A stretch of 64,000 nt of DNA from Candidatus Omnitrophota bacterium. Lineage in GTDB: Bacteria; Omnitrophota; Gorgyraeia; VGKH01. Both the position numbers and the translations under genes were made by a program. Numbering within the stretch: position 1 is the stretch's first letter; the number at the start of each line of letters is the position of its first letter. The stretch is from contig JAKLEP010000002.1 in the NCBI GenBank assembly GCA_022703055.1, positions 160,480-224,479 of the forward strand. The letters are read 5' to 3'. The notes beneath the pieces were generated by a model. The model searched no databases. It was not told the DNA's origin and worked only from the letters and a program-made list of their open reading frames with translations. Below are positions 38,998-62,649 of this stretch, piece by piece.

Positions 38998-40069
38998 AGA
39001 AATGAACCTTACTCATGTCGAAAACTAAGTCCATATCCCGATTAACTTCCGGCCGGTCATGGGCGCCAACCCTTGCGATAAAAGTATGCTTTCCGGTATT
39101 CAGATAAAGGTAGACCTCTGAACCCATCGGCTCAAAGACTTCGCAAGTTACCCTGACGATATTCTCGGGCGGAGCCTCGGAAACAAATAATTTATCATAG
39201 ATATCTTCTGAGCGGATACCGAGCACAACATCCTTATCTAAATAAGATCTGAGCTGATCGTACATCTCCTGGACAATCTTAACCTGGAATTTGCCTTCGT
39301 TAAAATACAGCTTTCCTTCTCTCTTGAAAATCTTGCCAGTCATAAAATTCATTGGCGGCGAGCCGATAAAACCTGCGACAAACTTATTTACCGGCTTATC
39401 GTATATGGTTATGGGATCAGCTATCTGCTGGACCTTGCCGCTTTTCATGACTACGATTTTGTCGCCCATAGTCATGGCCTCGACCTGGTCGTGAGTGACA
39501 TAAATCATTGTTGTCTGAAGCCTCAGATGCAATTTGTGTATTTCCGTACGCATCTGCACCCTCATCTTGGCATCTAAGTTACTCAGGGGTTCATCAAATA
39601 AGAATACCATCGGTTTTCTCACGATGGCACGACCGACAGCTACACGCTGTCTCTCTCCGCCCGATAATTCCTTAGGCCGGCGGTTTAATAGCTTCTGAAT
39701 GCCTAAAATCTCAGCTGCCTCTTTGACTCTACGGTCAATCTCCAATCTAGGGTAACCTCTTAACTTTAATCCAAAAGCCATATTCTCAAAAACTGTCATG
39801 TGAGGATAAAGCGCGTAATTCTGGAATACCATGGCGATATCCCTATTTTTTGCCGGAACATTATTTACAAGGCGGTTCCCGATAAAAATATCCCCGGAAC
39901 TCGGCTCTTCTAAACCCGCAATCATTCTTAGAGTAGTAGATTTTCCACAGCCAGACGGACCGACCAAAACCACGAATTCTTTATTATTGATACCGAGATT
40001 GACATTATCTACTGCGAGGATATTCCCCGGAAAGATTTTTGTGAGGTTTCTTACACTTACCTGAGCCAT
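38966..40069 (-). CDS. Carbohydrate-type ABC transporter ATP-binding protein (MalK/UgpC/MsmX family)
   Basis: GPSGCGKST Walker [15 protein letters not shown] signature, [11 protein letters not shown] Walker B, and a C-terminal MalK-type regulatory/TOBE region. No permease or binding-protein gene is adjacent. Confidence 0.85.
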
Positions 40070-40125
40070 AAGGTTTTTTCTATCTTGTTATATTTAAAAT
40101 TATTATAACAAAACACCTGGTTTCT

Positions 40126-40965
40126 TCAACTAAAATAATCCATTAAGCTGCTGAGAGTGGATTGCAAATTCTTACGATGCACTATCATATCGATAAGCCC
40201 ATGCTCCAACAAGAACTCCGAACGCTGAAAACCCTCTGGAAGTTTTTGCTTTATAGTCTGCTCAATAACTCTTGGGCCGGTAAAACCTATTAAAGCTTTA
40301 GGCTCGGCGATAATTACATCTCCTAAGCCAGCAAAAGAAGCCATAACTCCCGCCATGGTAGGATTGGTTAGAACTGAAATGTACAAAAGACCAGCATCTT
40401 GATGTTTAGCTAGCGCTGCCGAGGTCTTCGCCATCTGCATTAGAGAGAACATACCTTCATACATCCTCGCTCCGCCGCCCGAACCGGAAATGATAATCAT
40501 GGGGAATCTCTTCTTTGTAGCCGCTTCAATTGCGCGAGTAATCCTCTCGCCAACGACCGATCCCATGGAGCCCATAATAAAACGAGAATCTGTCACAGCC
40601 AAGCCAGCATTTTTACCGCCTATTTTGCCCAGGCCTGTTATTGCTGCATCTTTTAGGCCTGTCAAATCTTGGTCGGCCTGCAATTTTTCTTTATAGGATT
40701 TTGGCCCGCAGAACTCTAAGGGATCAACTGGAGAAAGTTCGCTGTCCAGTTCCTGAAAGGTATCTTTATCCAATAAAGAATCTATTCTTTCTCTTGCTGT
40801 GAGTGTAAAATGAAAATTGCAGTTAGGGCAAACTTTGAAATTATCAATTAACTTTTTATTATAGATCGGTTGGTTGCAGCCTTCGCATTTAGTCCATAAT
40901 CCGTCGGGGATATCCTTTTTCTTGACTCTTACGATGGTATATTTTGGCTTGCCGAATAATGGCAT
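40126..40965 (-). CDS. accD: Acetyl-CoA carboxylase carboxyltransferase beta subunit
   Basis: N-terminal zinc ribbon WTKCEGCNQPIYNKKL...CPNCNFH followed by the carboxyltransferase domain (GGSMGSVVGE-like GSMGSVVGER); 279 aa. Confidence 0.92.
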   Translation of the reverse strand: MPLFGKPKYTIVRVKKKDIPDGLWTKCEGCNQPIYNKKLIDNFKVCPNCNFHFTLTARERIDSLLDKDTFQELDSELSPVDPLEFCGPKSYKEKLQADQDLTGLKDAAITGLGKIGGKNAGLAVTDSRFIMGSMGSVVGERITRAIEAATKKRFPMIIISGSGGGARMYEGMFSLMQMAKTSAALAKHQDAGLLYISVLTNPTMAGVMASFAGLGDVIIAEPKALIGFTGPRVIEQTIKQKLPEGFQRSEFLLEHGLIDMIVHRKNLQSTLSSLMDYFS

Positions 40966-40973
40966 CTAAATCC

Positions 40974-42248
40974 TCACTTTAAAGAACTGAATCTATTGAT
41001 AGTCAGCCCGGAAAGAACCTTAGGATAAAAATACGTTGATTTTGGCGGCATTTTTTCTCCTCCGCCAGCTATCGCCCTGAGCTGATCGATCTTTACAGGA
41101 TTAAGTAGAAATACGGCCTCAGCCTTATTATCGTTAATCGTTTCAATTGCCGCGTCTTCATCCTTGATATATATAACATCTTTGTCTTTTATGTTTAATT
41201 TCTTGAAAATCACGTGTTGCAAGATGGAAACATCCAGGCTCTTCAATTCTTTTGAACCGGTCTCGATAAATTCATCCAAATTCGCCGAATTATTAAATCT
41301 CAACAGATAAAAATTCCCGCCTTTATATAAACCGTATGCGTGCTCGGCGAAACCTGCTTTCCTTAAAAGCGCGAATAACTCATACTTATCTTTGATTTTT
41401 TCTATGCTGAAATATCCCTGTAATGCACTTATATCGTTAGGTATTTTCTTGATTAGGCGGTGAATTGGCAGAATTTGCAAATCCTTGGCATTTAAATCGG
41501 TAAAGTATGTCATTATGTAGTTAAAATCTTCATTGCCAGTAAAGACTTTCTTCTTTTTTCTCATCAGATTGCAAAATTCCTGGCCGACCTCAAACCGGTG
41601 ATGGCCATCGGCAATATAGATACTCTTATCTTCCATGCATTTCTTCAATAAATCTATTGCCGCAGGATCTGATAGGCGCCAAATCTTAGTTCCTACCTTC
41701 TCTACATCATATACATCAATAATAGGCTGATTACCCAGAATATACTTATCAAAAATCCTTTTCATGATTCTATCGGTGTCGGAAAAAATGACGAAAATCG
41801 GGCTGGTATTGGCTTTTACTTTTTTGATAAGCTCAAGTCTGTTTTCCTTGGCAGCTAAATGAGTATTTTCATGAGGGAAAACCCCCGCCTTGGAAGAATG
41901 CTTTAATTTTAGCAATCCCAAAAATCCCAGCCGGCTTTTTCTCTCGCCCTTATAATAATATTCCTGAGAATAAAAATAGAAACATTTTTCCTTGTCTTCG
42001 CTTAAAATCCCGCTTTTTAGCCAACGGTCCAATGTCTTTTTGGCCCGTGAGAATTGATTATCCCTGGCGTTATCGCCCGCACTTTCCTTGTTAAGTTCTA
42101 TCCGGATAAAATTATAAGGGCTTCTTTTATAATACATTGATTGGTCTTTTTTGGAAATTACATCGTAGGGCGGACAATAAACCTTGGAAAGGTCTTTTAC
42201 TTTATCGTGATTATAAACCGTAGCTTTAAAAGGGCTTATTTCTGTCAT
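40974..42248 (-). CDS. DUF1015-family protein
   Basis: MTEISPFKATVYN...VYCPPYDVIS N-terminus and IADGHHRFE motif, as recalled for DUF1015. Start is set at Met19 of the track ORF (ATG 42248, ATGA overlap). Confidence 0.7.
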   Translation of the reverse strand: MTEISPFKATVYNHDKVKDLSKVYCPPYDVISKKDQSMYYKRSPYNFIRIELNKESAGDNARDNQFSRAKKTLDRWLKSGILSEDKEKCFYFYSQEYYYKGERKSRLGFLGLLKLKHSSKAGVFPHENTHLAAKENRLELIKKVKANTSPIFVIFSDTDRIMKRIFDKYILGNQPIIDVYDVEKVGTKIWRLSDPAAIDLLKKCMEDKSIYIADGHHRFEVGQEFCNLMRKKKKVFTGNEDFNYIMTYFTDLNAKDLQILPIHRLIKKIPNDISALQGYFSIEKIKDKYELFALLRKAGFAEHAYGLYKGGNFYLLRFNNSANLDEFIETGSKELKSLDVSILQHVIFKKLNIKDKDVIYIKDEDAAIETINDNKAEAVFLLNPVKIDQLRAIAGGGEKMPPKSTYFYPKVLSGLTINRFSSLK

Positions 42249-42604
42249 AGCAATAAATACACTCCTATCATTCCGCCGATAACATCGGCTAATAAATCCC
42301 AACCGGAACAGACTCTAGTAGAAACGAATAATTGATGGAGCTCATCCGAGGCTCCATAAAGGAAAATGATAGCCAATACTATAAGATATATTTTCTTATT
42401 ATTCAAGAGAGAATAAGAATTTTTTATTGCCCTAACTAAAAGCAAGCCGAATACGGCATATTCAGCTATATGGATTATTTTATCAATATGAGGAAAGCTT
42501 ATCGGCAAAGTCATAGCCGGAAGGCTAGACATATAAAAAATAAAACCTGCATACAAAATTACAGGTATCCAAAGCTTAAAAAAATTAGTTTTATTTATTC
42601 CCAT
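42245..42604 (-). CDS. VanZ-like family membrane protein
   Basis: 119 aa with 4 hydrophobic segments. DKIIHIAEYAVFGLLL and SDELHQLFVSTR...D.LAD motifs are typical of VanZ-like proteins. Confidence 0.7.
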   Translation of the reverse strand: MGINKTNFFKLWIPVILYAGFIFYMSSLPAMTLPISFPHIDKIIHIAEYAVFGLLLVRAIKNSYSLLNNKKIYLIVLAIIFLYGASDELHQLFVSTRVCSGWDLLADVIGGMIGVYLLL

Positions 42605-42851
42605 GAGGGCAATTTGAAGAAGGGCAGCTATGACAAGTTTTATCGGATTTTGATTTGCCTTCTTTTGATTTTTTGTAATCCGTAGCGTAAAAGCCTGAAC
42701 CTTTGAATATTATACCAGCCCCCGAACCGATAAGTCGTTTTAATTTTAATTTTTTACATTTGGGGCATTTCTTGATAGGCTCTTCGGTCATATTCTGGAA
42801 AATTTCGAAATTATGACCGCAGTTTAAACATTCGTATTCGTAAGTCGGCAT
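42591..42851 (-). CDS. FmdB-family zinc-ribbon protein
   Basis: MPTYEYECLNCGHNFEIFQNMTEEPIKKCPKCK is the canonical FmdB/CxxC-x-CxxC N-terminus; 86 aa. Confidence 0.8.
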   Translation of the reverse strand: MPTYEYECLNCGHNFEIFQNMTEEPIKKCPKCKKLKLKRLIGSGAGIIFKGSGFYATDYKKSKEGKSKSDKTCHSCPSSNCPHGNK

Positions 42852-42858
42852 ATCTCTC

Positions 42859-44007
42859 CTATTTAAATGCTCGTTTTATTTTTTCGGCAAACGTAGGATT
42901 GTCTATATCTTCGCCGGTTGAATTGGCGAATTCTTCTAAAATCCTTCTCTGCTCTGCCGTCAAATTTGTCGGGACTTCAATCTTGACCCTGATCAATTCA
43001 TCGCCTTGAGCATAGCCATGTAAATCAGGCATCCCCTTGCCGCGTATTCTGAAGATTTTCCCGCTTTGAGTTCCTGCAGGAACTTTCATTTTGATTTTGC
43101 CATCCAGCGTCGGGACTTCAACTTCGCCGCCTAAGGCTGCTTTGACAAAACTTATTCCTACTTCGGCATAAAGATCATTATCTTGCCTTTGAAAAACCGG
43201 ATGCTCTCTTACCCCGATGAGAAGGTACAAATCACCTTTACCGCCAACGCCCGATTCTCCCTCGCCTTTAATTCTAAGATGTGAATTATTATCGACCCCA
43301 GGAGGAATCTTAACTTGAATCTTGCGAGTAACTTTGACTCTGCCTTGACCCTGGCAATCTGGACAGGGTTGGGTGATTATTTTTCCCTCGCCGCCGCAAC
43401 GATTGCAGGTCTGGGCCATTTGAAAAAATCCGCTGGAAAATACCACCTGCCCCTGGCCTTTACATTGCGGGCAGATCTGTTTCTTAGTCCCCAGCTTAGC
43501 TCCCGAGCCGCCACAGGTATTGCATACCTCATATCTGGGGACTTTAATAGTCTTTTCAACGCCGTCGTGGGCTTCCTCTAAATCGATATCTAGTTCAAAC
43601 TGAATATCTCGGCCACGTCTCTGTCTGCCAGAGCTTCTTCTTCCGCCACCAAAGATATCAAATCCCAGATCTCCGAATATCTCATCAAATAATCCGCCGC
43701 CAAAACCGGCATCACCCATACTGCTAAAGATACTGGAAAAATCAGCACCTTTAAATATATCTTCATAGGTATATTTCTGGTCTATCCCGGAATGTCCATA
43801 TTGATCGTAAAGGGCTCTTTTCTGCGAGTCAGATAAGACTGCGTAGGCTTCGGAAATCTCTTTAAATTTTTCTTCCGCCTCTTTCTTCTTATCTTCGCTG
43901 ACTCTATCGGGATGAAATTGTAAGGCAAGACCACGATACGCCTTCTTGATATCTTCAAGCGAAGCGCTTTTCTGCACACCCAAAATTTCGTAATAATCGC
44001 GTTTCAT
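42859..44007 (-). CDS. dnaJ: Molecular chaperone DnaJ
   Basis: J-domain DYYEILGV...HPDR, a G/F-rich linker, and four CxxCxGxG zinc motifs; 382 aa. Confidence 0.97.
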
Positions 44008-44020
44008 ATGATTAATCTAA

Positions 44021-44081
44021 AAGCAAAAAGGAAAAAGTCAAAAGTAAAAAGTTTTTAAACCCGCGACTTTTTCCTTTTTGC
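44021..44081 (-). promoter_or_regulatory. Perfect 18-bp inverted repeat (stem-loop) in the dnaK-dnaJ intercistronic spacer
   Basis: AGCAAAAAGGAAAAAGTC (44021..44038) and GACTTTTTCCTTTTTGCT (44064..44081) are exact reverse complements separated by 25 nt. The repeat fills most of the 84-nt gap. Confidence 0.6.
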
Positions 44082-44091
44082 TCTTCAAGCT

Positions 44092-45990
44092 TTATTTGCT
44101 CTTGTCTTTATCGTCATCCTCAACGGTATAATCCGCGTCGACGATATCTTCTTTTGCAGCCGGACCTTTTTGTTCTTGCGATTGTTGCGGTCCTTGCTGA
44201 TTAGGTCCTTGAGGACCAGCTTGCGCCTTTTGCTTGGCTGCAGACTGTTTATAAATCTCCTCAGCCAACTTATGAGCAGCTTTAGTTAAATCCTCCATGC
44301 CTTTTTTGATTCTTTCGATGCTCTTGTCTTTAACCGCTGTCTTTAAATCATTAAGTTTGGCCTCGATATCTGCGCGCTCGGATTGAGATACCTTATCACC
44401 ATAATCCTTCAATGACTTTTCCGTGGCATAGATAAGATTATCCGCCTGATTAATTTGGTCAACTTCTTCTTTTCTCTTGGAATCTGCGGAAGCGAATTTC
44501 TCGGCGTCTCTGACCATCTTATCGATTTCTTCTTTGGAAAGTTTTTTCGGCGCAGTAATTTTAATTGACTGCTCTTTGCCGGTCCCTAAATCCTTGGCAT
44601 GGACATGCACGATGCCGTTTGCGTCAATATCAAAAGCTACCTCGATCTGAGGTATGCCCCGCGGCGCTGCTGGAATACCGACTAAATCAAATCTACCTAA
44701 TTCCACGTTATCTTCAGCCATTGACCTCTCACCCTGCAGAACGCGGATCGTTACCGCAGTCTGATTATCGGCCGCAGTCGAAAAAACCTGGCTCTTCTTT
44801 GTGGGGATAGTCGTATTTCTCTCGATAAGCTTTGTACTGACTCCGCCCAATGTTTCTATACCTAGAGACAAAGGCGTGACATCGAGCAATAAGACATCCT
44901 TCATGTCGCCTTTAATGATCGCCGCCTGGATTGCCGCGCCTAAAGCCACGCATTCCATGGGATCAATACCGCGCTCGATTTTCTTACCGACGTAATCCTC
45001 GACAAATTTCTGCACGATAGGCATTCTTGTCGGACCACCGACCATGATTACACGGTCGATTTCGCTGGCTGATAACTTTGCATCTGAAAGCGCCTGCTCC
45101 ATGGGATGCTTACATCTGTTAATGATAGGCCCAACCAACTCTTCAAGTTTTGCTCGGTTGATTGACATGGTAAGATGTTTTGGGCCAGTGGAATCAGCAG
45201 TAATAAAGGGAAGATTGATATCCGTAGTCAAGGTGCTGGAGAGTTCAACCTTTGCCTTTTCTGCTGCCTCGCGGACGCGCTGTATCGCCATCTTGTCATT
45301 TTTCAAATCGATCCCGGTTTGGCGATTAAATTCCTTGGTGATGTAATCAATCAACATATTGTCCATATCGGTTCCGCCGAGCTGAGTGTCGCCGGATGTA
45401 GATTTGACCTGAAAAACGCCTTGAGCCATTTCCATGATCGTGACATCCAGCGTTCCGCCACCGAGATCAAAAACCATAATCTTTTGTTCCTTCTGCGATT
45501 TCTCCAAACCGTAAGCTAAACATGCGGCAGTAGGTTCGTTGATGATACGCAACACCTTTAATCCGGCTATCTCGCCTGCATCTTTAGTAGCAGTTCTCTG
45601 GTTGTCATCAAAATATGCCGGGCAGGTGATTACTACCTCTTCGACCTTATCGCCAAGATAGGCTTCGGCATCCTGCTTAATCTTCTGCAAAATGAATGCA
45701 GAGATCTGCTGCGGCGTATATTCTTTGCCATGGGCTTTGAATTTGAAATCCGAGCCCATTTTGCGTTTTGCCGCCTGGATTGTGCCTTCAGCATTAATGG
45801 CTGCCTGGCGCCTTGCCGGCTCTCCGACCAAGCGCTGTCCATCTTTAGTAAAAGCCACATAAGACGGGAAGGCCTTGCCGCTTGATACACCCGCGCCTTC
45901 GGCTGACGGGATAATCACTGGACGACCACCTTCCATAACCGCTGCTGCTGAGTTTGAAGTTCCCAAATCAATTCCTATTACTTTTGCCAT
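44092..45990 (-). CDS. dnaK: Molecular chaperone DnaK (Hsp70)
   Basis: [24 protein letters not shown]-like [11 protein letters not shown] motifs; 632 aa. Confidence 0.98.
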
Positions 45991-45991
45991 G

Positions 45992-46558
45992 TTAACCTCC
46001 TTGTTTCTTTTTTGTCGCTACTTTGACTTTTGAAGTCCGTATTACTCTATCCTCTAAAGTATATCCTTTTTGAAACTCCTCAATTATAATGCCATCATCA
46101 AATTTATCCGACTCTTCCTGCATTAAAGCTTCGTGAAGGTGCGGATCGAATTTTTTCCCATTTGCTTCAATGGGTTTAACGCCGTTTTTCTTAAGCATCT
46201 CATAAAGATGCGCCAGAATCATCTCAATACCTTTTAAAAAAGCCATTGGGTCTTCGTGTTTGGTTTGTGCGGCTTCGACCGAACGCTCCAAGTCATCCAA
46301 CACACCCAAAAGCTCCAAGATGATATCTTCGTTGGCGAATTTGGTAAATTCGAATTTTTCTTTCTCCATGCGCTTCTTGGCGTTATCGAATTCTGCCTGA
46401 AGCCTCAAGATTCTTTCCCAGTATTCATTTGCTTTAGCTGCGTCTTCTCGAAGTTTCTTTAATTCGCTTTCCTTAATCTGGACCATCTCGTCTTTGGCCT
46501 CTTGCTGCTCTTGCTGTTTATGTTCTTTATCTATTTTCGACATATGCTTAAAAATCAT
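45992..46558 (-). CDS. grpE: Nucleotide exchange factor GrpE
   Basis: Coiled-coil N-terminus, [12 protein letters not shown], and a C-terminal beta domain ([10 protein letters not shown]...[16 protein letters not shown]). An alternative start at ATG 46543 lies just after the hrcA stop. Confidence 0.9.
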
Positions 46559-47288
46559 TTAATATATCGCTAATTAATTCCGAAAGATAATCAACCGCTG
46601 AAATAACCTTGGCATACTGCATTCTCTTCGGGCCCAAAACCGCGACTCTGCCGGTCGGCTTATTCTTATAGCTGTAGCTGGATACCACCAAAGAACAATC
46701 ATTTATTTCATTACAATGAATTTCGCTTCCGATAAATACCGCTATCTTCCTATCCAGTTCTTGATTGATAATATCAATCAGCTTTTGCTTTTCCTCGAGG
46801 AGCCTTAATATCTGCCTTATCTTCTCGATATTGCCGAATTCCGGCTGGTCTAACATGAAACTGGCACCTTTATAAAAAAGCCGGTCATGAAGCTGCGGAA
46901 AATAAACTAGGCCAGTGCAATGGGTAAAATCCGAAAGAACATCGGAAGTCGTATCGAGCAATCTTTCAAGTTCCTTAATATTTTTTCTGTATTCAGCATC
47001 GATACGGCTTCTCTCATCTTCCAGAAGCTTCATCTTCTTCATCAGGTAATTTACGTAGTAGCGATAGCCTTTTTCCGTAGGAACTCTGCCAGCCGAAGTA
47101 TGCGGATGCGTCAGGAATCCTAATTCTTCCAGCTCTGACAAAACATTCCTGATCGTGGCCGTGCTTAGATCAAAAGCATAATCCTTAGCCAACGCTTCAG
47201 AACTTACCGGCGCTGCTTTTTCGATATAAGTATCGATTGCCGCAGCTAAAATCTCATTTTTTCTTGATTCAAAATCAGTCTGTCTCAT
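46548..47288 (-). CDS. hrcA: Heat-inducible transcription repressor HrcA (short, 246 aa)
   Basis: N-terminal winged helix ([11 protein letters not shown]...[38 protein letters not shown]). It is first in an hrcA-grpE-dnaK-dnaJ arrangement, with CIRCE elements upstream. Confidence 0.85.
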
Positions 47289-47304
47289 AATGTTAACCCC
47301 CGAT

Positions 47305-47332
47305 TAGCAATCTATTTGGAAGGAATGCTAAG
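47305..47332 (-). promoter_or_regulatory. Degenerate CIRCE-like inverted repeat in the hrcA 5' leader
   Basis: TTAGCAATC-N10-GAATGCTAA. The arms match each other at 8 of 9 positions, and the spacer is 10 nt rather than 9. It lies 17 nt upstream of the hrcA ATG. Confidence 0.5.
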
Positions 47333-47372
47333 GAAGTATTTTAACATATAATATTTCTTTGTCAATATATTA

Positions 47373-47399
47373 TTAGCACTAAGCTAGCAAGAGTGCTAA
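47373..47399 (-). promoter_or_regulatory. CIRCE operator (HrcA binding site)
   Basis: TTAGCACTA-AGCTAGCAA-GAGTGCTAA against the consensus TTAGCACTC-N9-GAGTGCTAA, with one arm mismatch. A TTGACA hexamer (47360..47365 on the minus strand) lies between the two CIRCE elements. Confidence 0.9.
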
Positions 47400-47415
47400 T
47401 TTCAGGGCAAAAAAA

Positions 47416-47691
47416 TTATTTTTCCATTTCTAAAACAAACTTAATTGCACTAATATTTACATGCCTGTCTTCCATCAAATAATGTATATATTCAAGTTTC
47501 TGAATCTGAACCATTGAATAACAACGCGTCTTTTTGCCAATACGCTTTGGTTTGATTATACCCTTCTTCTCTAATTCACGTAGGGTCCAGACTGGAATAT
47601 GGCAAATCTTGCTGGCAATGCTTATAACATACACCGGCTCGTCAGGATCTATCTGGACTTTCATTTTATTTGCATCTTGCGGCTTATCCAT
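47416..47691 (-). CDS. MerR-family transcriptional regulator, HspR-like
   Basis: 91 aa. VYVISIASKICHIPVWTLRELEKKGIIKPKRIGKKTRCYSMVQIQKLEYIHYL is a MerR-type HTH in the pattern of HspR-like heat-shock repressors. GGGGG SD 5 nt upstream of the ATG. Confidence 0.7.
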   Translation of the reverse strand: MDKPQDANKMKVQIDPDEPVYVISIASKICHIPVWTLRELEKKGIIKPKRIGKKTRCYSMVQIQKLEYIHYLMEDRHVNISAIKFVLEMEK

Positions 47692-47715
47692 TTCAACCCC
47701 CTACTTCCAGATAAA

Positions 47716-47744
47716 AATATAGCATATCTTAATAATATTGTCAA
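47716..47744 (-). promoter_or_regulatory. Sigma-70-type promoter for the HspR-like gene
   Basis: The minus strand reads TTGACA (47744..47739), a 17-nt spacer, then TATATT (47721..47716), about 25 nt upstream of ATG 47691. The dyad ATATCTT-N12-AAGATAT (47724..47749) overlaps the -35 hexamer and spacer. Confidence 0.65.
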
Positions 47745-47787
47745 GATATATTTACAAAAATTATTAGATATTATAACAGTGAATATT

Positions 47788-47827
47788 AAATAAAAGAGCC
47801 GCACTGACTTTCCAGTCAGGGCGGCTC
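47788..47827 (-). terminator. Rho-independent terminator ending the pilin/giant-protein/paralog unit
   Basis: The minus strand reads GAGCCGCCCTGAC-TGGAAA-GTCAGTGCGGCTC followed by TTTTATTT: a 12-bp stem with one mismatch, beginning 50 nt after the stop at 47877. Confidence 0.8.
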
Positions 47828-47876
47828 CTAGACCTAAAATGGTCTATATTACAGCAGAAACTATGTTTATACTATT

Positions 47877-49310
47877 TTACTGTACAAAACACCTACAGGA
47901 TTCGCATTCACTGCAATTAAGCCATGTGCTGCTTGTCTGAATCCAATAATAGTCATAGTTTTGAGCGGATGCGTATCCAGTACATGAAGTACCGACCTTC
48001 TGGGTACAATATGAAGTTGTGTAATTGAAACCTAATAACTTACAGAATTGCTGGCAATCATCGCCGCCGTTATCTCCTCTATAACCAACGATATCATATT
48101 CTCCGCCCGTTCCATCTCGTATATGAGGATTAGATAAATCGACATAAGCTATGCTGCCACTAAATCCTCTAGCGCAATTGGCATATGAGGCTCTTTCATC
48201 TTCGAGCGCAGTGTTGGTCTCGTTTACCCAGACACTTCTAGGAGGACACCAAGCAGGACAATCTGTTCCATCTGCTTTACATAATTTCTTATTATTCTCT
48301 TCTATTGTACCGGTAACATCCAATTTAACATTGGGAGTTGTGTTTCCGATACCCACATTACCACCGTTAATATATGAGGTACCTGCCGGATCAAGTTTAA
48401 TATTTGCCGACATGGTCGGGAATCCGCTACCGATATCAGCATAACTCTTGACAACATCTCCTAATGAAATAGAACCATCCAACCATAAACGATAATTAGA
48501 ACCATATTGGCCATCCGGGCCTAAATACATCATGGTGTATTTAGCGCCGTCATTGACATTCTCATGCGTCCAGCCGAATCCCCAGCCGCTGTTGTCGGCG
48601 ATCAATCTTGAATCGACAACATAAGGATAGATTGCGCCCAGGCGTCCTGATTTGACATAAGTAGTATCAAAAGCGCCAAGCGAAAGAAGGTTGGTTTCAT
48701 AGTTAGAGCCGCCAAGTTGCAATCTAGCCAAAGGACTTGCAGTCCCCACTCCTATTTTATTAGCACCCGGCAAAATTAGGTCTCCTGTTCCTGTCTTTAG
48801 ATACATCAACCAACCAATTTCATCAGGAGAATACCAACCAAAGGCATAATTGACTGATGGCTTGGACATGAACCAATATCTTAATGCAGAAGGAACTTCG
48901 AATTTTAGCTGGTCCATGCTCCTGGTAAGCACCAAGTTATCGGTGAACCGGCCTCCTCCTGTAACATCTAATTTATATGATGGACTGGTTGTTCCAACTC
49001 CCACATTAGAACCAGTCTGATAGACTACAGAATTACCAAGAGTGCTTGTGCCTGTAAATATAGGAAAGTAATTTGTAGTTCCGCTTCCGCCGATTCCTGA
49101 AGCAGCAGAAGTCTGCCAAGTGGCAAGACCGGTAGCATCTGAGGTAAGCACCTTACCGGCACCGGGAGAACCTCCTTTAATCGTTATCTGGCCGTTGACC
49201 GTGACACTTTGCGCGGTTATCGGGCCGTCGACGACTTGCAGTTCGGCGAATGCATTGACATAAAAACCTAAACCTACTACTACGGCTAGCACTATTAGTA
49301 ACTTTTTCAT
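47877..49310 (-). CDS. Secreted fibre-like protein, paralog 2 (variable Cys-rich C-terminal domain)
   Basis: Signal peptide MKKLLIVLAVVVGLGFYVNAFA, ITIKGGSPGAGKVLTSDATGLATWQ, a repeated (N/K)(V/I)G(V/I)G(T/N)(T/A)(S/T)P..(K/R)L(D/Q)(V/L) motif, and a C-terminal 140 aa with 13 Cys; 477 aa. Confidence 0.6.
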   Translation of the reverse strand: MKKLLIVLAVVVGLGFYVNAFAELQVVDGPITAQSVTVNGQITIKGGSPGAGKVLTSDATGLATWQTSAASGIGGSGTTNYFPIFTGTSTLGNSVVYQTGSNVGVGTTSPSYKLDVTGGGRFTDNLVLTRSMDQLKFEVPSALRYWFMSKPSVNYAFGWYSPDEIGWLMYLKTGTGDLILPGANKIGVGTASPLARLQLGGSNYETNLLSLGAFDTTYVKSGRLGAIYPYVVDSRLIADNSGWGFGWTHENVNDGAKYTMMYLGPDGQYGSNYRLWLDGSISLGDVVKSYADIGSGFPTMSANIKLDPAGTSYINGGNVGIGNTTPNVKLDVTGTIEENNKKLCKADGTDCPAWCPPRSVWVNETNTALEDERASYANCARGFSGSIAYVDLSNPHIRDGTGGEYDIVGYRGDNGGDDCQQFCKLLGFNYTTSYCTQKVGTSCTGYASAQNYDYYWIQTSSTWLNCSECESCRCFVQ

Positions 49311-49338
49311 TTTAGTACCTCCATATCTTTTTGCTTAA

Positions 49339-49367
49339 CTTATATCAAATTATTCTAATAATTGCAA
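49339..49367 (-). promoter_or_regulatory. Candidate internal sigma-70-like promoter upstream of paralog 2
   Basis: The minus strand reads TTGCAA, 17 nt, then TATAAG in the 99-nt gap between the paralogs. AT-rich context, so it could be fortuitous. Confidence 0.3.
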
Positions 49368-49409
49368 ATAATTATAAAGACGTTTTGTTTTGTTTTTATT
49401 TATCACCTT

Positions 49410-50870
49410 CTATTGCTTAGTTATCACATCATGATGATAAGCACAACTTGCCGTTTCTCCTCTGCATTGAGTTCCTGAACTATAATACCTTGTAAAATGG
49501 CAGGTTGAGCTAGTTGTAATTTGCCCCTGACAAGTCTCCCCTGGATTTATTCCGCAATAACAATAGTACGTATCATTGCTATTGCATGGGCTATTGCATT
49601 GATAATATTTTGTCATTATGATACTATCACCACTCTTAAGGACATAAGCTCCATTAGACTTGATATCACCATTTACATCAAGCTTAACAGTCGGGCTTGC
49701 TGTCCCTACACCGACATTAGTTGATGTTACTGTCAATGGAGCAGCACCACTACCGGCCTGAACATGCAGTTTCTGACTAGAACTATCCACTCTTAAAACT
49801 GCATCACCGGCTACAGCACTGGTAGAATATTGCCCAGATGCCGCAGCTATAGCTAATCTTGCTTCTGAAGCTGTACGGCCAAGTCCTATGTCCGTACGAC
49901 TTGTGCCGGCTCCGCTGAGCACCGACAATGCTTCAGCATCAGGACTTACTACTGTAAGTTTTTTACTGGGCGCGCTTGTTCCAATGCCTACATTACCTCC
50001 AGTAAAATATGAAGTACCGGCGGGGTCAAGCTTAACCGTCGGTGTCATAGTTGGGAATCCGGTTCCTATATCAGCATAGCTTTTAGCAATATCGCCCAAT
50101 GAAATAGCGCCATCTAACCATAAACGATAATTGGCACCAAATTGGCCATTCGGCCCTAAATACATCATTGAATACTTATCACCCGTAGTAACATTCTCAT
50201 GAGTCCATCCAAACCCCCAGCCGCTTTCATCAGCAATTAATCGTGTGTCTATGACATAGGGATAGATTGCGCCTAAGCGTCCTGCCTTGACATAAGTTGT
50301 ATCAAATCCACCAAGCAGGAGAAGATTATTTTCGTAGTTAGAGTTGCCTAGCTGTAGCTTTCCTAATGGACTGGTGTTACCAACACCGATATTATCGGCA
50401 AAATAATTGGCGGTCCCGCCGTAGCCCCAGCTAAAATATGAGCCAGTATACCAAAGGGCTTCAGCGTCATTAACTCTTAGGGCAACACCCGTTAATCCTT
50501 TATTAAGGTTGAGCGGACCGGCAATATCAAGTTTATAGGCTGGAGAAGTTGTGCCAATACCAACATTGGTTCCGCTCTGATAAACCGCAGAATTTCCTAT
50601 AGAAGTTGTACCGCTAAATATAGGAAAATAATTTGTAGTACCGCTTCCGCCAATACTGCCAGAGGAAGGCGACTGCCAAGTAGCAAGGCCGGTTGAATCC
50701 GAAGTAAGCACCTTGCCGCTACCGGGAGAACCTCCTTTAATCGTTATCTGGCCGTTGACCGTGACACTTGCCGCGGTTATCGGGCCGTCGACAACTTGCA
50801 GTTCGGCGAATGCATTTGCATAAAAACCTAAACCTACTATTACGGCTAGCACTATTAGTAACTTTTTCAT
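49410..50870 (-). CDS. Secreted fibre-like protein, paralog 1 (different Cys-rich C-terminal domain)
   Basis: Signal peptide MKKLLIVLAVIVGLGFYANAFA. The first roughly 60 aa are nearly identical to paralog 2, and it has the same repeated VGIGT.P..KL motif (4 copies). The C-terminal 70 aa contain 10 Cys; 486 aa. Confidence 0.6.
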   Translation of the reverse strand: MKKLLIVLAVIVGLGFYANAFAELQVVDGPITAASVTVNGQITIKGGSPGSGKVLTSDSTGLATWQSPSSGSIGGSGTTNYFPIFSGTTSIGNSAVYQSGTNVGIGTTSPAYKLDIAGPLNLNKGLTGVALRVNDAEALWYTGSYFSWGYGGTANYFADNIGVGNTSPLGKLQLGNSNYENNLLLLGGFDTTYVKAGRLGAIYPYVIDTRLIADESGWGFGWTHENVTTGDKYSMMYLGPNGQFGANYRLWLDGAISLGDIAKSYADIGTGFPTMTPTVKLDPAGTSYFTGGNVGIGTSAPSKKLTVVSPDAEALSVLSGAGTSRTDIGLGRTASEARLAIAAASGQYSTSAVAGDAVLRVDSSSQKLHVQAGSGAAPLTVTSTNVGVGTASPTVKLDVNGDIKSNGAYVLKSGDSIIMTKYYQCNSPCNSNDTYYCYCGINPGETCQGQITTSSTCHFTRYYSSGTQCRGETASCAYHHDVITKQ

Positions 50871-50904
50871 TTTAGTACCTCCTAATTATCATTCTCGCTA
50901 ATAA

Positions 50905-53900
50905 CTAATTTGGACCGCTTGAGCCAGCCTCATTAACCATCCTCATTACTTTGTTGTGGACAACTACATCGTCGGCTATATAGGTATGGTTAGGCTCAAC
51001 CTCCAAATTATATACGTCTACGATAGAATCTTTCGCTTCTATCTTAGTTATCTTCTTTAGTGCTAGCTGTGAATCATCTGAAACCATAATCTTGTCTCCG
51101 ACCTTCAAAGTAGAGGCCTCGACATATTCCTTGCCGTTATATATAGGGTGAATGCCAGTTACATTCAAGGCCCTGCCACCTTCAGTCTCTATGACAAAAT
51201 ATCCTTTCATCATAGGATGAGGGAAGGTTTTGGTTACTTCTGAAGCAACTGTCTTTCCTTCAGGAGTAACGCTTAAGACCTTATCACCAGTCAAGACTTT
51301 CTCAATGGCCTTGGATGTTCCGTCTGCCATAGCAATCTTAGTCCCTGGCAATAAGCATCCTCCGCCGCCTCCACCTGTGGAGTGACGGATAATGTTCGTA
51401 TTCACAAAAGTTGTCATACCAGTTCCAGATACATATACCGCATCAGATAAAGAATCTGTCGCTCTGTTGCGATAGATTTCTGTCCCGGAAATAGTCGTTG
51501 CCTTATTAGAGTTAATATAGATACCGCCGCCCTTACTTGTCGAGCCGTTAGCGACGTTATCTTCAATATCGCAGTTTTCAATGTTAACCGGCGCATTATC
51601 AACTACAATACCACCGCCGTTGCCGGATGTCAATCCGTAAGAGATACCAAAACCTCTAAAAGTAACAAGATTGGTCGCGGCTGCAAAATTGACCACCGGC
51701 GTGGTTAGCGCTTGGCTTTGGCCGCTGATAATTGTATCGTTTGGATTAGCAGATGTACTCTCAACGGTTAATGCCTTATTTCTATTGAAAGTGATCCTTT
51801 CATTATAGATTCCCGGAGCAGCGGTAATCCTGAAATTATTATCCAGGGATGCATAATTAAGCGCCTCTGTTATAGTATTGTAACATGCAACGCAAACTGA
51901 AGAAGCGTTATAGACCTTTACAGGATTGTTGCACCCGGTAACGTTAATATTGACCGTCGCTGTGTTGCTCCACAAAGGTGTAGTGCAGGCATTGCTAACC
52001 CTGTAAGTGAAACTATCAGCCCCTATGTATCCAGCTGTTGGTGTATAGGTGAAGCTACCATTAACAGACAAGGAAAGCGTACCATGCAAAGGATCGCTCA
52101 TTTTCTGCACGCTTCCAAAAGCCCAAGTAGGAGCTTCAGGATTAACATCGTTTATGACAACTCCATTAGAGAAGGTCACTGTTAAAGTGCTATTTTGTGT
52201 AGCGGTATAACTATCATTGACTGCCACTGGTGGATCATCGCAACGCTGGGAAATACTAAGCCTAACCAACGTCACATTACCTTGTGTTCCGCTACCGCAA
52301 TCGCTTACTGGCCTGTAGGTAAACGTATCTTCACCATACCAGTTAGCGCTCGGTACATAAGTAAACGAACCTGGGCCGTATGTATTCATTGTCAATGTTC
52401 CATGGCTAGGACCAGTTACTAAAACTGCTGATGCAGGTTCGCCTCCACCATTATTTGGATCGATATCATTATCCAGTAAGGTAGGCGCATACCCACCAAG
52501 AGACATATCTTCTGCCCCATAATAGTGATCTTCAACGCCTGTCGGAAGTTGGCAGCTATTGACAGTTAAATAAACTGTAGCTACGTTGCTGTATAAGTTA
52601 TTGCAACTGCTGCGCGCCCTGTAAGTGAAGCTATCACTACCGGTATAACCCGTTGTTGGCGTATAAGTGAATGAACCGTTGGTATTCAAAGTCACTGTTC
52701 CATGGGATGGGTCACTATACTTATAAGCAGTTAACGTAACTCCGCCATCAACGCTATAATCATTGGCTAATACACCGGGAGCGGCTACGGTATAAGCAGT
52801 ATTAATCATAACATCGCTGTAGGTATCATTCACTGCTACTGGGTTATCGCAGGCCTTAGCTACAGAGATGTTGCGGCTGACTGTATTGGAATTTACGCAT
52901 CCATCGGTTACTGTGAAGCTGACTGTGCGAGTGGCTGTCGATGGATCCTCCGAGGTATTCCTGTATCTTACTGAACGTAGCGCAAGTTGATAGTTGGCAA
53001 CTGTTGCGCTTCCGGATAGTGTCATGGTTCCAGTGGTTGAGTTCCAGCTACCGGTTATGCCGTTAGCTGTAGTGTATTCTAGAAGATCCTGGTTGCTAGT
53101 ATAATTGGCGGTAATCTGGACCGTGCCGCCAGTTAAATTCGTACTATCAGCATCTGTTACGGTTATGGTGCTAGAAATAACTGTCGCTGACTGGTTCTCG
53201 GTATAGCTTAAAGTACTGGTTTCAATATTAGCTAATACCGGAGCGTCACAGACAGATGCGATAGTAATGTTACGAGTTACTGTATTGGAATCCACACATC
53301 CATCATTAACCTTGAATGTGACTGTACGTGTGGCTGTCGATGGATTCTCCGAGGTATTCCTATATGTTACCGCGCGTAGCGCAAGTTGATAGTTGGCTAA
53401 TGTTGCGCTGCCGGTTAATGTCATGGTACCGGTGGTTGAGTTCCAGCTACCGGTTATGCCGCTGACGCCTGGGAATGCCAGGACATCTTGGCTACTGGCA
53501 TAATTGCTGGTAATCTGGACTGTACCCCCGGTTAAGTTGGTACTGTCTGTATCCGTTACTGTTATACTACCAGTAATCGCTGTAGCTGCTTGATTCTCAG
53601 TGTAAGCCAACGCAGCAGTCTCAATATTAGCTAAGACTGGAGGACTGCAAACCGTACCCACGTTGATATTACGTGTGGCTGTATTGGAATCTAACCCGCC
53701 ATCATTTACTTTGAAACTCACTGTGCGTTGCAAAGTTGATGGATTAGCGGAGGTATTCCTATATGTTACCGCGCGTAGCGCAAGTTGATAGTTGGCAACT
53801 GAAGAGCTGCCGGTTAATGTCATGGTACCGGTGGATGAGTTCCAGCTACCGGTTATGCCGCTGACGCCTGGGAATGCCAGGATATCTTCAGCGCTGGCAT

Positions 53901-56900
53901 AATTGCCGGTGATCTGGACTGTGCCGCCGGCCAAGTTAGTACTGTCAACATCTGTAACTGTGATAGTCGAAGTAATTGCTGTAGCTGCCTGGCCTTCATC
54001 ATAACTTAAAGCACTGGTCTCGATGTTAGCCAAGACTGGTGCATCAGGAACAGATGTTAAACTTATAGCTCTGCTGACCGTGTTAGAACTCACGCATCCA
54101 TCAGTTACTGTAAAGCTGACTGTTCGTTGCAGAGTTGATGGATTCTCCGAAGTATTCCTATATGTCACTGAGCGTAACGCGAGTTGATAGTTGGCTAATG
54201 TTGCGCTACCGGTTAATGTCATGGTACCGGTGGATGAGTTCCAGCTACCGGTTATGCCGCTGGCTGCGGTAAAGGCTAAGACATCTTCAGCGCTGGCATA
54301 ATTGCCGGTGATCTGGATTGTACCGCCGGTTAAATTGGCACTATCAACATCTGAAATAGTAATAGCCGAAGTGATAGCTGTAGCTGCTTGATTCTCAGTG
54401 TAAGCTAATGCGGAAGTCTCAATATTAGCTAATACTGGAGCATCACAAACAGATGTGATAGTAATGTTACGAGTTACTGTATTGGAATTCACACATCCAT
54501 CAGTTACTGTAAAGCTGACTGTTCGTTGCAGAGTTGATGGATTCTCCGAAGTATTCCTATATGTCACTGAGCGTAACGCAGTCTGATAATTAGCTAACGT
54601 TGCGCTACCGGTTAGTGTCATGGTACCGGTGGATGAATTCCAGCTACCGGTTATGCCGCTGACGCCTGGGAATGCTAAGACATCTTCAGCGCTGGCATAA
54701 TTGCCGGTGATCTGGACTGTGCCTCCGGTTAAGTTGGTGCTATCTGTATCTGTTACGGTTATAGCACCAGTAATTGCCGTAGCTGCCTGATTCTCGGTAT
54801 AAGCCAATGCTGAAGTTTCGATATTGGCTAATGCAGGGGCATTGCAGACAGGTGTTATAGTGATATTGCGTGTAACCGTGTTAGAATTCACGCATCCATC
54901 ATTCACTGTGAAACTTACTGTGCGTTGTAAAGTTGATGGGTTAGATGAAGTATTCCTATATGTTACCGCGCGTAGCGCAGCCTGATAGTTGGCTAATGTT
55001 GCGCTGCCGGTTAATGTCATGGTACCGGTGGATGAGTTCCAGCTACCGGTTATGCCGCTGACGCCTGGAAATGCCAGGACATCTTCAGCGCTGGCATAAT
55101 TGCCGGTGATCTGGACTGTGCCTCCGGTTAAGTTGGTGCTGTCAACATCTGTAACTGTGATAGCGCTGGTAATCGCTGTAGCTGCCTGGCCTTCAGTATA
55201 ACCTAAAGCACTGGTCTCGATGTTGGCTAAGACTGGTGCGTCGCAGACAGCTCCCACTGTGATGTTGCGTGTAACTGTATTAGAATCCACGCATCCATCA
55301 TTAACCTTGAATGTAACTGTACGCTGCAAGGTTGATGGATTATCCGAAGTATTCCTATATGTCACTGCGCGTAGCGCAGTCTGATAGGTAGCCAATGTTG
55401 CGCTGCCGGATAGTGTCATGGTTCCGGTGGATGAGTTCCAGCTACCGGTTATGCCGCTGACACCTGGGAATGCCAGGACATCTTCCGCGCTGGCATAATT
55501 GCCGGTGATCTGGACTGTGCCACCTGCTAAACTAGTACTATCAACATCGGAAATTGTTATATTGCTGGTAACCGCTGTGGCTGATTGATTCTCAGTGTAA
55601 GCCAATGCAGCAGTCTCAATATTAGCTAAGACTGGAGCATCGCAAACAGCTCCTATAGTTATACCACGAGATACTGTATTAGAAGATAAAGCACCATCAG
55701 TTACTGTAAAGCTGACTGTTCGTTGCAGAGTTGATGGATTCTCCGAAGTATTCCTATATGTTACCGCGCGTAGCGCAAGTTGATAGTTGGCAACTGTTGC
55801 GCTGCCGGTTAATGTCATGGTACCGGTGGTTGAGTTCCAGCTACCGGTTATGCCGCTGACGCCTGGAAATGCCAGGACATCTTGGCTGCTAGCATAATTG
55901 CCGGTGATTTGGACTGTACCGCCTGCCAAATTGGTGCTGTCGGCATCTGTAACCGTTATGGTACCAGTGATTGCCGTAGCTGCCTGATTCTCAGTGTAAG
56001 CCAATGCAGCGGTCTCAATATTAGCTAATACTGGAGCATTACCAACTGCACCCACGTTTATATTACGAGTTGCTATGTTAGAATTCAAAGCACCATCATT
56101 TACCCTAAAGCTTACTGTGCGCTGCAAAGTTGATGGTGTGGCTGAAGTATTCCTGTAAGTTACTGTACGTAACGCAGCCTGATAGTTGGCAACTGAAGAA
56201 CTGCCGGTTAGTGTCATAGTTCCGGTAGATGAATTCCAGCTACCGGTTATACCGCTGGCAGCTGTGAATTCAAGAAGATCCTCACCGCTGGCATAATTGC
56301 CAGTAATCTGGACTGTACCGCTAGCTAAGTTAGCGCTATCAACATCTGTGGCGGTCATTGTCGTGGTAATAGCTATTGCCGGCTGGCCTTCCGTGTAGCT
56401 TAAAGCGCTGGTCTCAATGTTGGCCAAGACTGGCGCATCAGGTACCGGTTGAACGGTAATCGATGTGGTAGCCGTATTGCTAATTCTACTGGTACTATCA
56501 ATAATATTATAGGTGAAACTATCTCCGCCGTTGTAGTCAGCCGCTGGAGAATATCTGATGGTAAGATTCCCAGTATTTATAGTTGCGGTTCCGTGAGAAG
56601 GCGCACTAACAATACTGTTAATGGTTATAGTATCTCCAGTATCGGGATCGTAGTCATTATTCATAACCGAGAGATTTGTAGGCGTATCTTCATTAACTGA
56701 TAAGCTGTCATTGACCGCTACTGGCGCATCTGGCATGGCATTAAGATTAACCGTTACTGTGGCTGAATTGCTTATCAAATGTGAAGTACTGGAATCTTGA
56801 ATTCTATAGGTAAAGGTATCTGTGGTCCCGTCAAAGTCAGGGTTGGGAACATAATGCAAAGCATCTATAATCTGAGTAACTGTGCCATTTGCCGGTTGAG

Positions 56901-59496: not shown

Positions 59497-59535
59497 TTTC
59501 TCTTCTCCTTCTTAGAAAATGGTTTTTTTATCAGT

Positions 59536-59949: not shown

Positions 59950-59990
59950 TATCTTTTCTTTCATTTCATTCATTATTATTAATATCATTC

Positions 59991-60030
59991 AACAAAAAAT
60001 CCAGACCATAGCTTTCAAGCGTACGTCTGG
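59991..60030 (-). terminator. Intrinsic terminator forming the riboswitch expression platform
   Basis: The minus strand reads CCAGACGTACGCTTGAAAGCTATGGTCTGG (outer 6-bp CCAGAC/GTCTGG stem plus inner TA and GC pairs) followed directly by ATTTTTTGTT. It lies between the aptamer and the pilin start. Confidence 0.6.
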
Positions 60031-60054
60031 ATTTCTCCATTCAAAACTTAACCT

Positions 60055-60146: not shown

Positions 60147-60377
60147 TATGGCGGACCCCTGTCGGGGTTTTCGGATATTTCTACCCTTTACTAATGAATC
60201 ACTTTTTCTACTAAAAGATTACCATATATTCTCTGTTTTACAAGAGGGAAGGCTGCCTTTGAGAAAACGTTTTCTTATCTTCGCTTAAACCTATGTATAT
60301 CAGCATGTTAAGACATAATACCAACAAAAATAATTAAAAAAATTAGCAATTTATATACAAAAAAATCGGTTTTAGAC

Positions 60378-60406: not shown

Positions 60407-60464
60407 CGAGAAATATAAGGATATGTTTTTTCTACTTAAATCTTATCAAGGACTTAGCGATAAA

Positions 60465-61718: not shown

Positions 61719-61722
61719 ATTA

Positions 61723-62643: not shown

Positions 62644-62649
62644 TAATTT

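Follow-up and report, generated by a model that had tools for sequence, protein, structure and literature searches.

Modular exchange at the distal end is the classic mode by which tail fibres evolve, and mosaic tail-fibre-like adhesins with exchanged tips are already known from phages and from the MAT fibres of Bdellovibrio. MAT fibres possess a signal peptide, a conserved N-terminal domain and trimeric beta-helical shafts with capping loops, and they end either in an S74 domain or in one of various unrelated adhesive tips that were swapped during evolution (PMC10769870). Bacteria of the phylum Omnitrophota have been proposed to be predators or parasites equipped with adhesin-like giant proteins and type IV pili (PMC10066038). 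Here we describe two tandem genes, W1 and W2, in a 64,000-nucleotide (nt) stretch of a Candidatus Omnitrophota genome, hereafter the window (contig JAKLEP010000002.1, positions 160,480 to 224,479). These genes probably encode Sec-secreted, tail-fibre-like surface fibres of the MAT superfamily, belonging to a subgroup without S74, that are diversified by recombination. The lifestyle put forward for Omnitrophota fits with such an adhesive-fibre reading.

W1 (49410..50870, minus strand) encodes 486 amino acids (aa) and W2 (47877..49310, minus strand) encodes 477 aa. Both are open reading frames (ORFs), as a preliminary description made from the sequence alone had proposed, and they follow one another in the same orientation, separated by a spacer of 99 nt. 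The exact W1 product is also present on the JGI contig Ga0116241_10000127, and a W2-like product that is identical at 476 of 477 residues occurs in the same arrangement on an ENA contig (L006). That description had further pointed to near-identical 5′ ends that include the ribosome-binding site, and indeed 173 of 185 nt are identical (12 differences) when 49141..49325 is compared with 50701..50885. Similarity begins exactly at the Shine-Dalgarno sequence that precedes the start codon (GGAGGTACTAAA-ATG), and the DNA upstream of this onset is unrelated. The homogenised tract of W1 (50685..50882, minus strand) comprises the Shine-Dalgarno sequence GGAGGTACTAAA, the start codon, the signal peptide and the first roughly 40 mature residues; nucleotide comparison with this copy places the tract of W2 at 49125..49322 (minus strand). 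In both proteins the signal peptide spans residues 1–22 (MKKLLIVLAVVVGLGFYVNAFA, followed by ELQ, with the cut directly after NAFA) and lacks a lipobox cysteine. A typical n-h-c region ending in AFA before E, read off the sequence rather than from a predictor, is common to W1, W2 and all of their close relatives.

Identity varies strongly along the two genes and peaks at the homogenised 5′ end, which rules out uniform divergence. Nucleotide identity is 96% over codons 1–30, 90% over codons 30–62 and 72% over codons 62–118. There follows a block, not singled out in the preliminary description, in which residues 117–162 of W1 cannot be aligned with residues 119–186 of W2. Homology then resumes, as anticipated, through the middle of the genes (67–83% nucleotide identity), and the C-terminal third is no more similar than expected by chance (ungapped 60-nt windows of the tips average 26%). 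At the protein level, BLASTP aligns W1 and W2 over 332 aa with 65% identity (E = 2e-149) and gives no significant match between the tips, in keeping with the complete C-terminal divergence that had been proposed. Among amino acids that are identical in the two proteins, the same codon is used at 51 of 56 positions within codons 1–62 versus 52 of 107 positions in the middle domain (Fisher p = 2.4e-8). Thus, protein conservation alone does not explain the near identity of the 5′ ends.

To define the module map, segments of W1 and W2 were compared by local searches with a set of 125 proteins (123 collected family proteins together with W1 and W2). Several close relatives are needed to read this map. 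A related Omnitrophota assembly (JGI 3300029288, locus L003 on a 671-kilobase (kb) contig), whose housekeeping DNA is 84% identical to that of the window, carries three tandem fibre genes, R1, R2 and R3; G2 is a strain counterpart of W2, and O1 is a further relative. Both W1 and W2 start with an N module at residues 23–118, located at 50517..50804 (minus strand) in W1 and, by local search and invariant columns, at 48957..49244 (minus strand) in W2. It reads GKVLTSDxxGLATWQ ... GSGTTNYFPIF ... NVGIGTTSPxYKLD, the last element being the capping-loop motif. With W2 as the query, the N module is found in 114 of the 125 proteins, in some of them at an internal position too. What is unique to the N-terminus is a stretch of approximately 13 residues at the start of the mature protein; the remainder of the module also occurs internally in relatives.

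The segment that follows differs between the two proteins. W1 carries A1 (50385..50522, minus strand, residues 117–162; LNLNKG...ALWY.G.YFSWGYGGTANYF), which is found in 36 proteins including W1 itself and is typical of S74-ended fibres, many of the other 35 ending in a Peptidase_S74 domain. W2 carries A2 (48753..48956, minus strand, residues 119–186), which cannot be aligned with A1 and is otherwise present only in a near-identical copy of W2 (P0122), in G2 (P0004) and in R3 (P0001). Next comes an aromatic-rich, clade-specific middle (M) domain at 50010..50387 in W1 (minus strand, residues 162–287) and 48375..48752 in W2 (minus strand, residues 187–312), with 78% nucleotide identity between the two; its only carriers are W1, W2 (with P0122), G2, R2 and R3. 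The preliminary description had noted an Ala/Ser-rich insert in W1. This segment exists, although it is in fact a discrete conserved module, S (49677..49973, minus strand, residues 300–398), that is shared by 24 proteins including W1, with R1, R2, R3 and O1 among the 23 others.

Each protein ends in a cysteine-rich tip: T1 of W1 (49413..49676, minus strand, residues 399–486) has 8 cysteines, and T2 of W2 (47880..48305, minus strand, residues 336–477) has 12 and features WCPPRS, NPHI, DDCxxFCxLxGF and CxECxxCxC. All cysteines of both proteins lie within the tips, and these counts correct the 10 and 13 given previously. The resulting architectures are N-A1-M-S-T1 for W1, N-A2-M-T2 for W2 and N-A2-M-T3 for G2, with N-S-Y-N-T3 for R1, N-M-S-T5 for R2, N-A2-M-S-T4 for R3 and N-S-X-T6 for O1. 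Junctions between modules fall at the capping-loop motif, and W1 and W2 each contain three to four NVGIGTxxPxxKL sites.

A survey of relatives for further tip cassettes had been suggested, and the close relatives yielded five more tips, so that seven tips (T1–T7) are found on shuffled shafts among nine close relatives without cross-matches between tips. The T3 tips of G2 and R1, which come from two species, are 84% identical, yet the shafts that bear them differ. Tip homology searches gave E = 0.3 for T1 against T2 and no match for T2 against T4. T2 and T3 match at a borderline level (E = 0.001) over the first roughly 60 residues of each, mostly through the stretch CKADGTDCP/CRADGTNCP. No homologue of T1 was recovered by a word-index search of 5.8 billion protein clusters or among the collected family proteins. 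For T2, a word-indexed search returned one homologue, and an exhaustive HMMER search of 1.84 billion representative proteins returned only three other representatives (P0121, with its cluster-mate P0123, P0124 and P0126). One T2 carrier has a different NVGIGT-containing stalk, and two are short membrane-anchored proteins. The latter, P0124 and P0126 (219–256 aa), combine an N-terminal transmembrane helix and a ‘MGHSxxEI’ motif with a C-terminal T2-type domain, so the T2-type cysteine-rich tip is used there on quite a different anchor. The best AlphaFold2 (AF2) model of T2 has a predicted local distance difference test (pLDDT) score of 76.8 (54–66 for the other four models) and is mostly beta with one helix; it has no fold neighbour in the PDB or BFVD. 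A C-type-lectin-like fold, prompted by the stretch ‘CQQFCKLLGF’, was considered and found to be unsupported, with no such neighbour of the T2 model in the PDB.

Library scans place the proteins only loosely. Neither W1 nor W2 matches an entry of Pfam (none at E ≤ 1) or NCBIfam, and their PHROG tail-fibre matches are weak (phrog_9942, 1.7e-9) and run through the NVGIGTTSPxxKL motif. Within the 5.8 billion protein clusters there are 1148 relatives, many of which have PF13884 (Peptidase_S74) and some of which are named ‘tail fiber domain-containing protein’; named relatives among the matches listed come from Omnitrophota, Planctomycetota, Bacteroidota, Patescibacteria and other groups. The N module has the same phylum range in species-representative genomes, with Bdellovibrionales included, and in that scan the complete N-terminus (residues 1–116) was found in an Omnitrophota genome only.

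Profile searches were more informative. A profile built from the nine closest relatives and compared with the whole PDB matched only Bdellovibrio MAT fibres (Bd2133, 4e-9; Bd3182, 7.5e-6; Bd2439, 3e-3; Bd1334, 7e-3). A wider family profile matched five MAT entries at 7e-5 or better, of which Bd2133 is the best at 9e-18, and the next entry was MyRF at 0.13, a protein that the authors of the MAT study connect with the capping-loop motif (PMC10769870). The likeness to phage tail fibres that had been noted earlier therefore proves to be a real homology to the tail-fibre-like and MAT fibre superfamily. Judging from sequence, the signal peptide, the homology to a capping-loop shaft and the variable, exchangeable tip would place W1 and W2 in the MAT superfamily, and the S74 chaperone and autoprotease domain was not found in either protein by Pfam.

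The most similar described proteins are the B. bacteriovorus MAT fibres without S74 (Bd2133, Bd1334, Bd2439, Bd2734 and Bd2740; Caulton et al. 2024, PMC10769870). As in those fibres, a signal peptide is followed by a conserved N-terminal part and a beta-rich shaft that bears the capping-loop motif, the shafts being homologous by profile; the C-terminal tips are unrelated and fold independently, some having no homologue; paralogues have very similar N-terminal parts and swapped C-termini; and the organism has a proposed predatory or host-dependent lifestyle. In contrast, W1 and W2 comprise approximately 480 rather than 1000 aa, have the clade-specific M domain and end in small disulfide-rich tips with 8 or 12 cysteines. 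Their motif, V-G-I/V-G-T-T-x-P-x-x-K-L, is one residue longer than the published V-G-G/N-pi-x-x-P-x-x-x-L, and their genes are arranged in tandem, with homogenised 5′ ends, beside those for a giant Hint-ended adhesin and a pilin-like protein. The conserved N module of roughly 95 aa may correspond to the beta-rich domain of approximately 130 aa that comes straight after the signal peptide in all Bdellovibrio MATs.

S74-ended phage tail fibres and tailspikes, such as T5 pb1 and K1F endosialidase, and the ‘tail fiber domain-containing proteins’ of bacterial genomes are similar in that the shaft modules N, A1 and S occur in many S74-ended proteins and in the weak PHROG matches. W1 and W2 differ from them by the lack of S74, the presence of a Sec signal peptide and a conserved chromosomal setting that is not that of a phage. 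The shaft module is also present in very long fibrous proteins of predatory lineages: two loci in metagenome-assembled genomes of Bdellovibrionales (L059, 7703..20392; L067, 3620..10429) encode giant proteins of more than 2270 and more than 4230 aa, both running off the locus edge, that are packed with NVGIGTTxPxxKL and GSGTxNY modules. As giant multi-repeat proteins, they were unsuitable as comparators for the MAT N-terminal domain.

Comparison with the relative that carries R1–R3 bears on the gene conversion that the preliminary description had suggested. Over the first 186 nt, W1 and W2 are 92.5% identical to each other, and either of them is 68–75% identical to any of R1–R3, so the two 5′ ends in the window are far closer to one another than to any copy in a related genome, as gene conversion predicts. 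R1 and R3 are likewise 83% identical over this stretch, and the within-genome pattern vanishes further into the genes. The values of 92.5% within the window and 68–75% to the copies of the relative indicate that the 5′ ends evolve in concert within a genome.

Strain variants reveal a second kind of change. Between 50792 and 48871 of the window, two 3-kb contigs from other samples (L004 and L005) differ from it at one position only, 49040. Past 48871 there are 7 mismatches up to gene nucleotide 520 and then 117 in nucleotides 521–1000, followed by an unrelated tip; the recombination breakpoint thus lies at 48790..48870 (minus strand), inside A2 of W2. Beyond it the middle domain is roughly 78% identical and tip T3 replaces T2. 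A third gene begins after the T3 gene on these contigs, and its signal-peptide region is orthologous to that of R3. The 5′ end of W2 matches that of the second gene of this three-gene strain haplotype. The M domain of W2 is 83% identical at the nucleotide level to that of R3, which is the level of orthologues, versus 78% to that of G2. The clearest event at the locus is the replacement between strains of the 3′ two-thirds of W2, comprising M and the tip. This replacement probably occurred by unequal crossing-over, which also alters the copy number (one, two or three genes). On the simplest reading, W2 would be the product of unequal recombination between genes 2 and 3 of a three-gene array. 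The earlier picture of a conserved base with swapped tips holds for the tips, whose swapping is seen across strains and species, and needs amending for the base, which is itself a mosaic of modules.

These patterns resemble those of tandem and silent-cassette adhesin loci, including Neisseria pilE/pilS and the tail-fibre cassettes of phages and tailocins, in which a conserved 5′ part is joined to a variable 3′ part and in which recombination tracts have sharp borders and copy number changes. Unlike at silent-cassette loci, every copy here is complete and separately translatable, and there is no recombinase, invertase, inverted repeat or retroelement-type repeat nearby. An invertible or shufflon-type switch was rejected because no meaningful inverted repeats were found, and a diversity-generating retroelement was rejected because neither tip has a template or variable repeat in the 64 kb. 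The direct repeats in the window are limited to the paralogue pair, the internal repeats of the giant gene and a few short pairs of low identity.

The interpretation that we favour, that W1 and W2 are MAT-type surface fibres diversified by recombination, draws directly on the module map, the profile homology of the shaft to MAT fibres, the concerted evolution, the strain breakpoints, the non-phage context and the rarity of the tips. Most likely, the proteins would be exported by Sec and would then form short, trimeric surface fibres. Such a fibre would consist of a conserved N-terminal end, a shaft of interchangeable modules joined at NVGIGTTxPxxKL and a disulfide-rich tip. By analogy, the N-terminal end would be cell-proximal and the tip would be distal and act as the binding module for a ligand, host or prey; the terms ‘attachment end’ and ‘receptor-binding end’ used in the preliminary description likewise depend on analogy with Bdellovibrio MAT fibres. 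With two or three fibres that bear different tips, a cell would be able to bind a wider range of targets. Homologous recombination in the shared modules would both preserve and diversify the array, with short conversion tracts holding the tandem 5′ ends nearly identical and longer exchanges or unequal crossovers replacing M and the tip, the same events altering copy number from one to three genes.

Several observations weigh against this interpretation. Single-sequence searches of the PDB with W1 and W2 gave chance matches only. The AF2 monomer model of full-length W2 is poor (pLDDT 57.8) and demonstrates neither a beta-helix nor a trimer; its top five Foldseek hits, again Bd1334 and Bd2133, would favour the link to MAT fibres and are at most suggestive, as they are not significant (E of approximately 3e-3, template-modelling (TM) scores below 0.16). 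Most of the link to MAT fibres depends on one short motif-turn, GNVGIGTtsPxxKLxV, which recurs in the proteins, and on the sequence beside it. Both proteins have approximately half the length of the Bdellovibrio MATs, and, the MAT entries in the PDB being C-terminal fragments, the comparison covers those parts rather than the Bdellovibrio-type N-terminal domain of approximately 130 aa. Because neither M nor either tip can be assigned to a known fold or family, the word ‘adhesin’ is applied by analogy. With regard to recombination, the 5′ identity may reflect replacement of the 3′ part after a recent duplication rather than conversion of the 5′ part, and the data fit both. The three-gene and two-gene haplotypes are taken from short-read assemblies whose contigs break inside repeats. 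Moreover, the rest of the third gene was not recovered, a search of metagenome contigs with its unique 5′ sequence having returned the known contig only, so we infer rather than observe the fusion origin of W2.

The genes that surround the pair are those of surface proteins and housekeeping functions. A giant surface protein of 2863 aa is encoded at 50905..59496 (minus strand), with its stop codon 34 nt before W1, and contains FG-GAP domains, nine 133-aa repeats, cadherin-like/Big_9 domains and a C-terminal Hint domain (PT-HINT). The repeats are encoded by nine tandem 399-nt units (52820..56428, minus strand) that are 70–90% identical. The giant gene also neighbours the fibre genes in L003 and in L007, a locus of a second Omnitrophota relative. 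The Hint end of the protein (GGGGGC followed by LLPG ... VVVHN) is conserved in both, with approximately 17 residues after it and no toxin or cargo. In the JGI assembly of the same population, a 1-nt indel divides the giant gene into products of 2146 and 706 aa. Nearly all ORFs of at least 150 aa in the window (1..64000) lie on the minus strand, and GC skew is mostly negative and positive only at 52–58 kb, a stretch inside the repeat region of the giant gene.

A type IV pilin-like gene (59536..59988, minus strand, 150 aa) whose product has an N-terminal methylation motif (Pfam N_methyl 6e-5, with weak ComP_DUS and Pilin_GH matches) heads this gene string and occupies the same place in L003. 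Downstream of W2 lie a gene for a MerR-type regulator and then hrcA-grpE-dnaK-dnaJ, and the wider flanks hold hflX, miaA, a gene for a TPR/SPOR protein, accD and GGDEF genes along with the hrcA-grpE-dnaK-dnaJ cluster. The DnaK and DnaJ proteins belong to 90%-identity clusters in which the members with names are ‘Candidatus Omnitrophota bacterium’, and the window accordingly derives from an Omnitrophota metagenome-assembled genome. The order in L003 is the pilin-like gene, the giant gene, the three fibre genes and MerR-hrcA-grpE-dnaK-dnaJ, and a more distant Omnitrophota genome has a single fibre gene in the same place. Synteny of the locus thus extends over three Omnitrophota genomes with three, two and one fibre genes.

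Directly after W2, a terminator-like hairpin with a U-tract is located at 47787..47828 (minus strand; GGAGCCGCC-CUGACU-GGAA-AGUCAG-U-GCGGCUCU... then UUUUAUUU). A scan for consensus terminators missed this hairpin, which has an internal mismatch, and folding recovered it, the 102-nt region after W2 having a folding energy of −38.4 kcal/mol (z = −5.6). The terminator scan found no comparable structure at the junctions between the giant gene, W1 and W2. Because the gene string ends at this putative terminator, co-transcription of the pilin-like, giant and fibre genes is plausible. Sigma-70-like promoter sequences at 47716..47744 and 47338..47365 (minus strand; 11 of 12 matches, extended −10 TG) precede the MerR-type gene and hrcA, respectively. 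From its sequence context, the heat-shock operon seems to be a transcription unit separate from the fibre genes.

Other explanations of the locus were weighed against the one that we favour. Descent from a prophage or tailocin, whose tail-fibre genes would have been left in the chromosome, is very improbable. The PHROG tail-fibre families are the sole library matches, and homologues are often annotated as tail-fibre-domain proteins and have the phage-type S74 chaperone, but W1 and W2 have no S74 domain. As the preliminary description had stated, no phage genes are nearby: structural, integrase and lysis genes are absent on either side. Furthermore, three genomes with at most 84% identity have their fibre genes at this one position, between the gene for the giant adhesin and the heat-shock operon. 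Both proteins also begin with a signal peptide of the Sec type, for which tail fibres have no use, as they are assembled in the cytoplasm. We see equally little reason to expect that the cysteine-rich tips are secreted effectors or toxins in polymorphic-toxin-like cassettes attached to the PT-HINT giant protein. At polymorphic toxin loci (Rhs, CdiA and MafB), the downstream cassettes typically combine a conserved 5′ part that is prone to recombination with a C-terminal end that varies, and the giant protein encoded upstream of W1 has a terminal pretoxin-HINT domain that no toxin follows. Against this, each of the two fibre genes is complete, having a Shine-Dalgarno sequence, a start codon and a signal peptide of its own, and most of each protein is a fibre shaft homologous to that of MATs. 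They have no sequence in common with the pre-Hint region of the giant protein, and a tblastn search of the window with the N module finds W1 and W2 only. Nor does a small immunity-like ORF follow either tip, W1 being followed by the 99-nt spacer and W2 by the terminator.

A structural role in the envelope or matrix, in an S-layer-like or fibrillar coat whose tips vary as antigenic escape from phages or grazers, is the most credible of these rivals; it is still less likely than an adhesin role, and the data fit both. A signal peptide and repetitive beta-rich modules would suit such proteins. The family is indeed present in many phyla that are not predatory, such as Bacteroidota and Planctomycetota, and swapping of exposed ends between strains is also expected from phage-driven diversifying selection. 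However, the closest characterised relatives are adhesive fibres (PMC10769870), the neighbouring genes encode a pilin-like protein and a cadherin/FG-GAP giant adhesin, the copy number is low (one to three), and a Pfam search gave neither SLH nor any other S-layer or anchoring domain. Alternatively, repeats could have collapsed or been joined into chimaeras during short-read assembly and so have created W2 itself or the near identity of the 5′ ends. Contigs of three other assemblies do begin or end in the repeated 5′ region (L001 ends at 49046, and L004, L005 and L006 start at 50792), and collapse of genes 2 and 3 would give exactly the combination of a gene-2-like 5′ end with an R3-type M domain that W2 has. 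Yet L001, a 223-kb JGI contig, repeats W1, the spacer and the first 264 nt of W2 without a substitution, its only difference from the window being the 1-nt indel upstream in the giant gene, and L006, a 5-kb contig from another sample, contains W1-W2-MerR-hrcA-grpE with 1 mismatch in 5054 nt. The 5′ copies differ at 12 of 185 positions and hence are no collapsed consensus, and the 671-kb contig of the relative has three intact tandem genes with the same features. An assembly artefact is thus largely excluded for the W1/W2 pair, and we assign it only a slight probability.

Mosaic fibres with exchanged tips are not in themselves new, and what this locus adds to MAT-type surface fibres is the lineage, a compact architecture with the clade-specific M domain, two near-orphan cysteine-rich tips, a conserved link to a Hint-ended giant adhesin and pilin-like genes, and a nucleotide-level view of conversion and cassette replacement. 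A literature search found no paper that ties MAT-type or tail-fibre-like fibres to Omnitrophota. More tentatively, the pilin-like gene, the giant Hint-ended protein and the fibres may belong to a single conserved host- or prey-recognition apparatus of one Omnitrophota lineage. Specificity would then reside in the fibres, an exchange of M-plus-tip cassettes by recombination in the shared modules would allow strains to change target, and T1 and T2 would represent novel disulfide-rich folds for receptor binding that have hardly any relatives; this larger picture is possible rather than probable.

Omnitrophota are uncultured, very small and thought to be predators or parasites, and attention has so far been given to their giant proteins and pili. 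The locus makes the diversification of fibres in nature visible as 5′ homogenisation, as replacement of module-plus-tip blocks with sharp breakpoints and as change in copy number, and its two essentially orphan cysteine-rich domains are candidate binding modules. It also offers concrete candidates for the determinants of partner-cell specificity: proteins that are short and should express easily, that are homologous to fibres that Bdellovibrio uses on its prey, and whose tips vary between tandem copies, strains and species.

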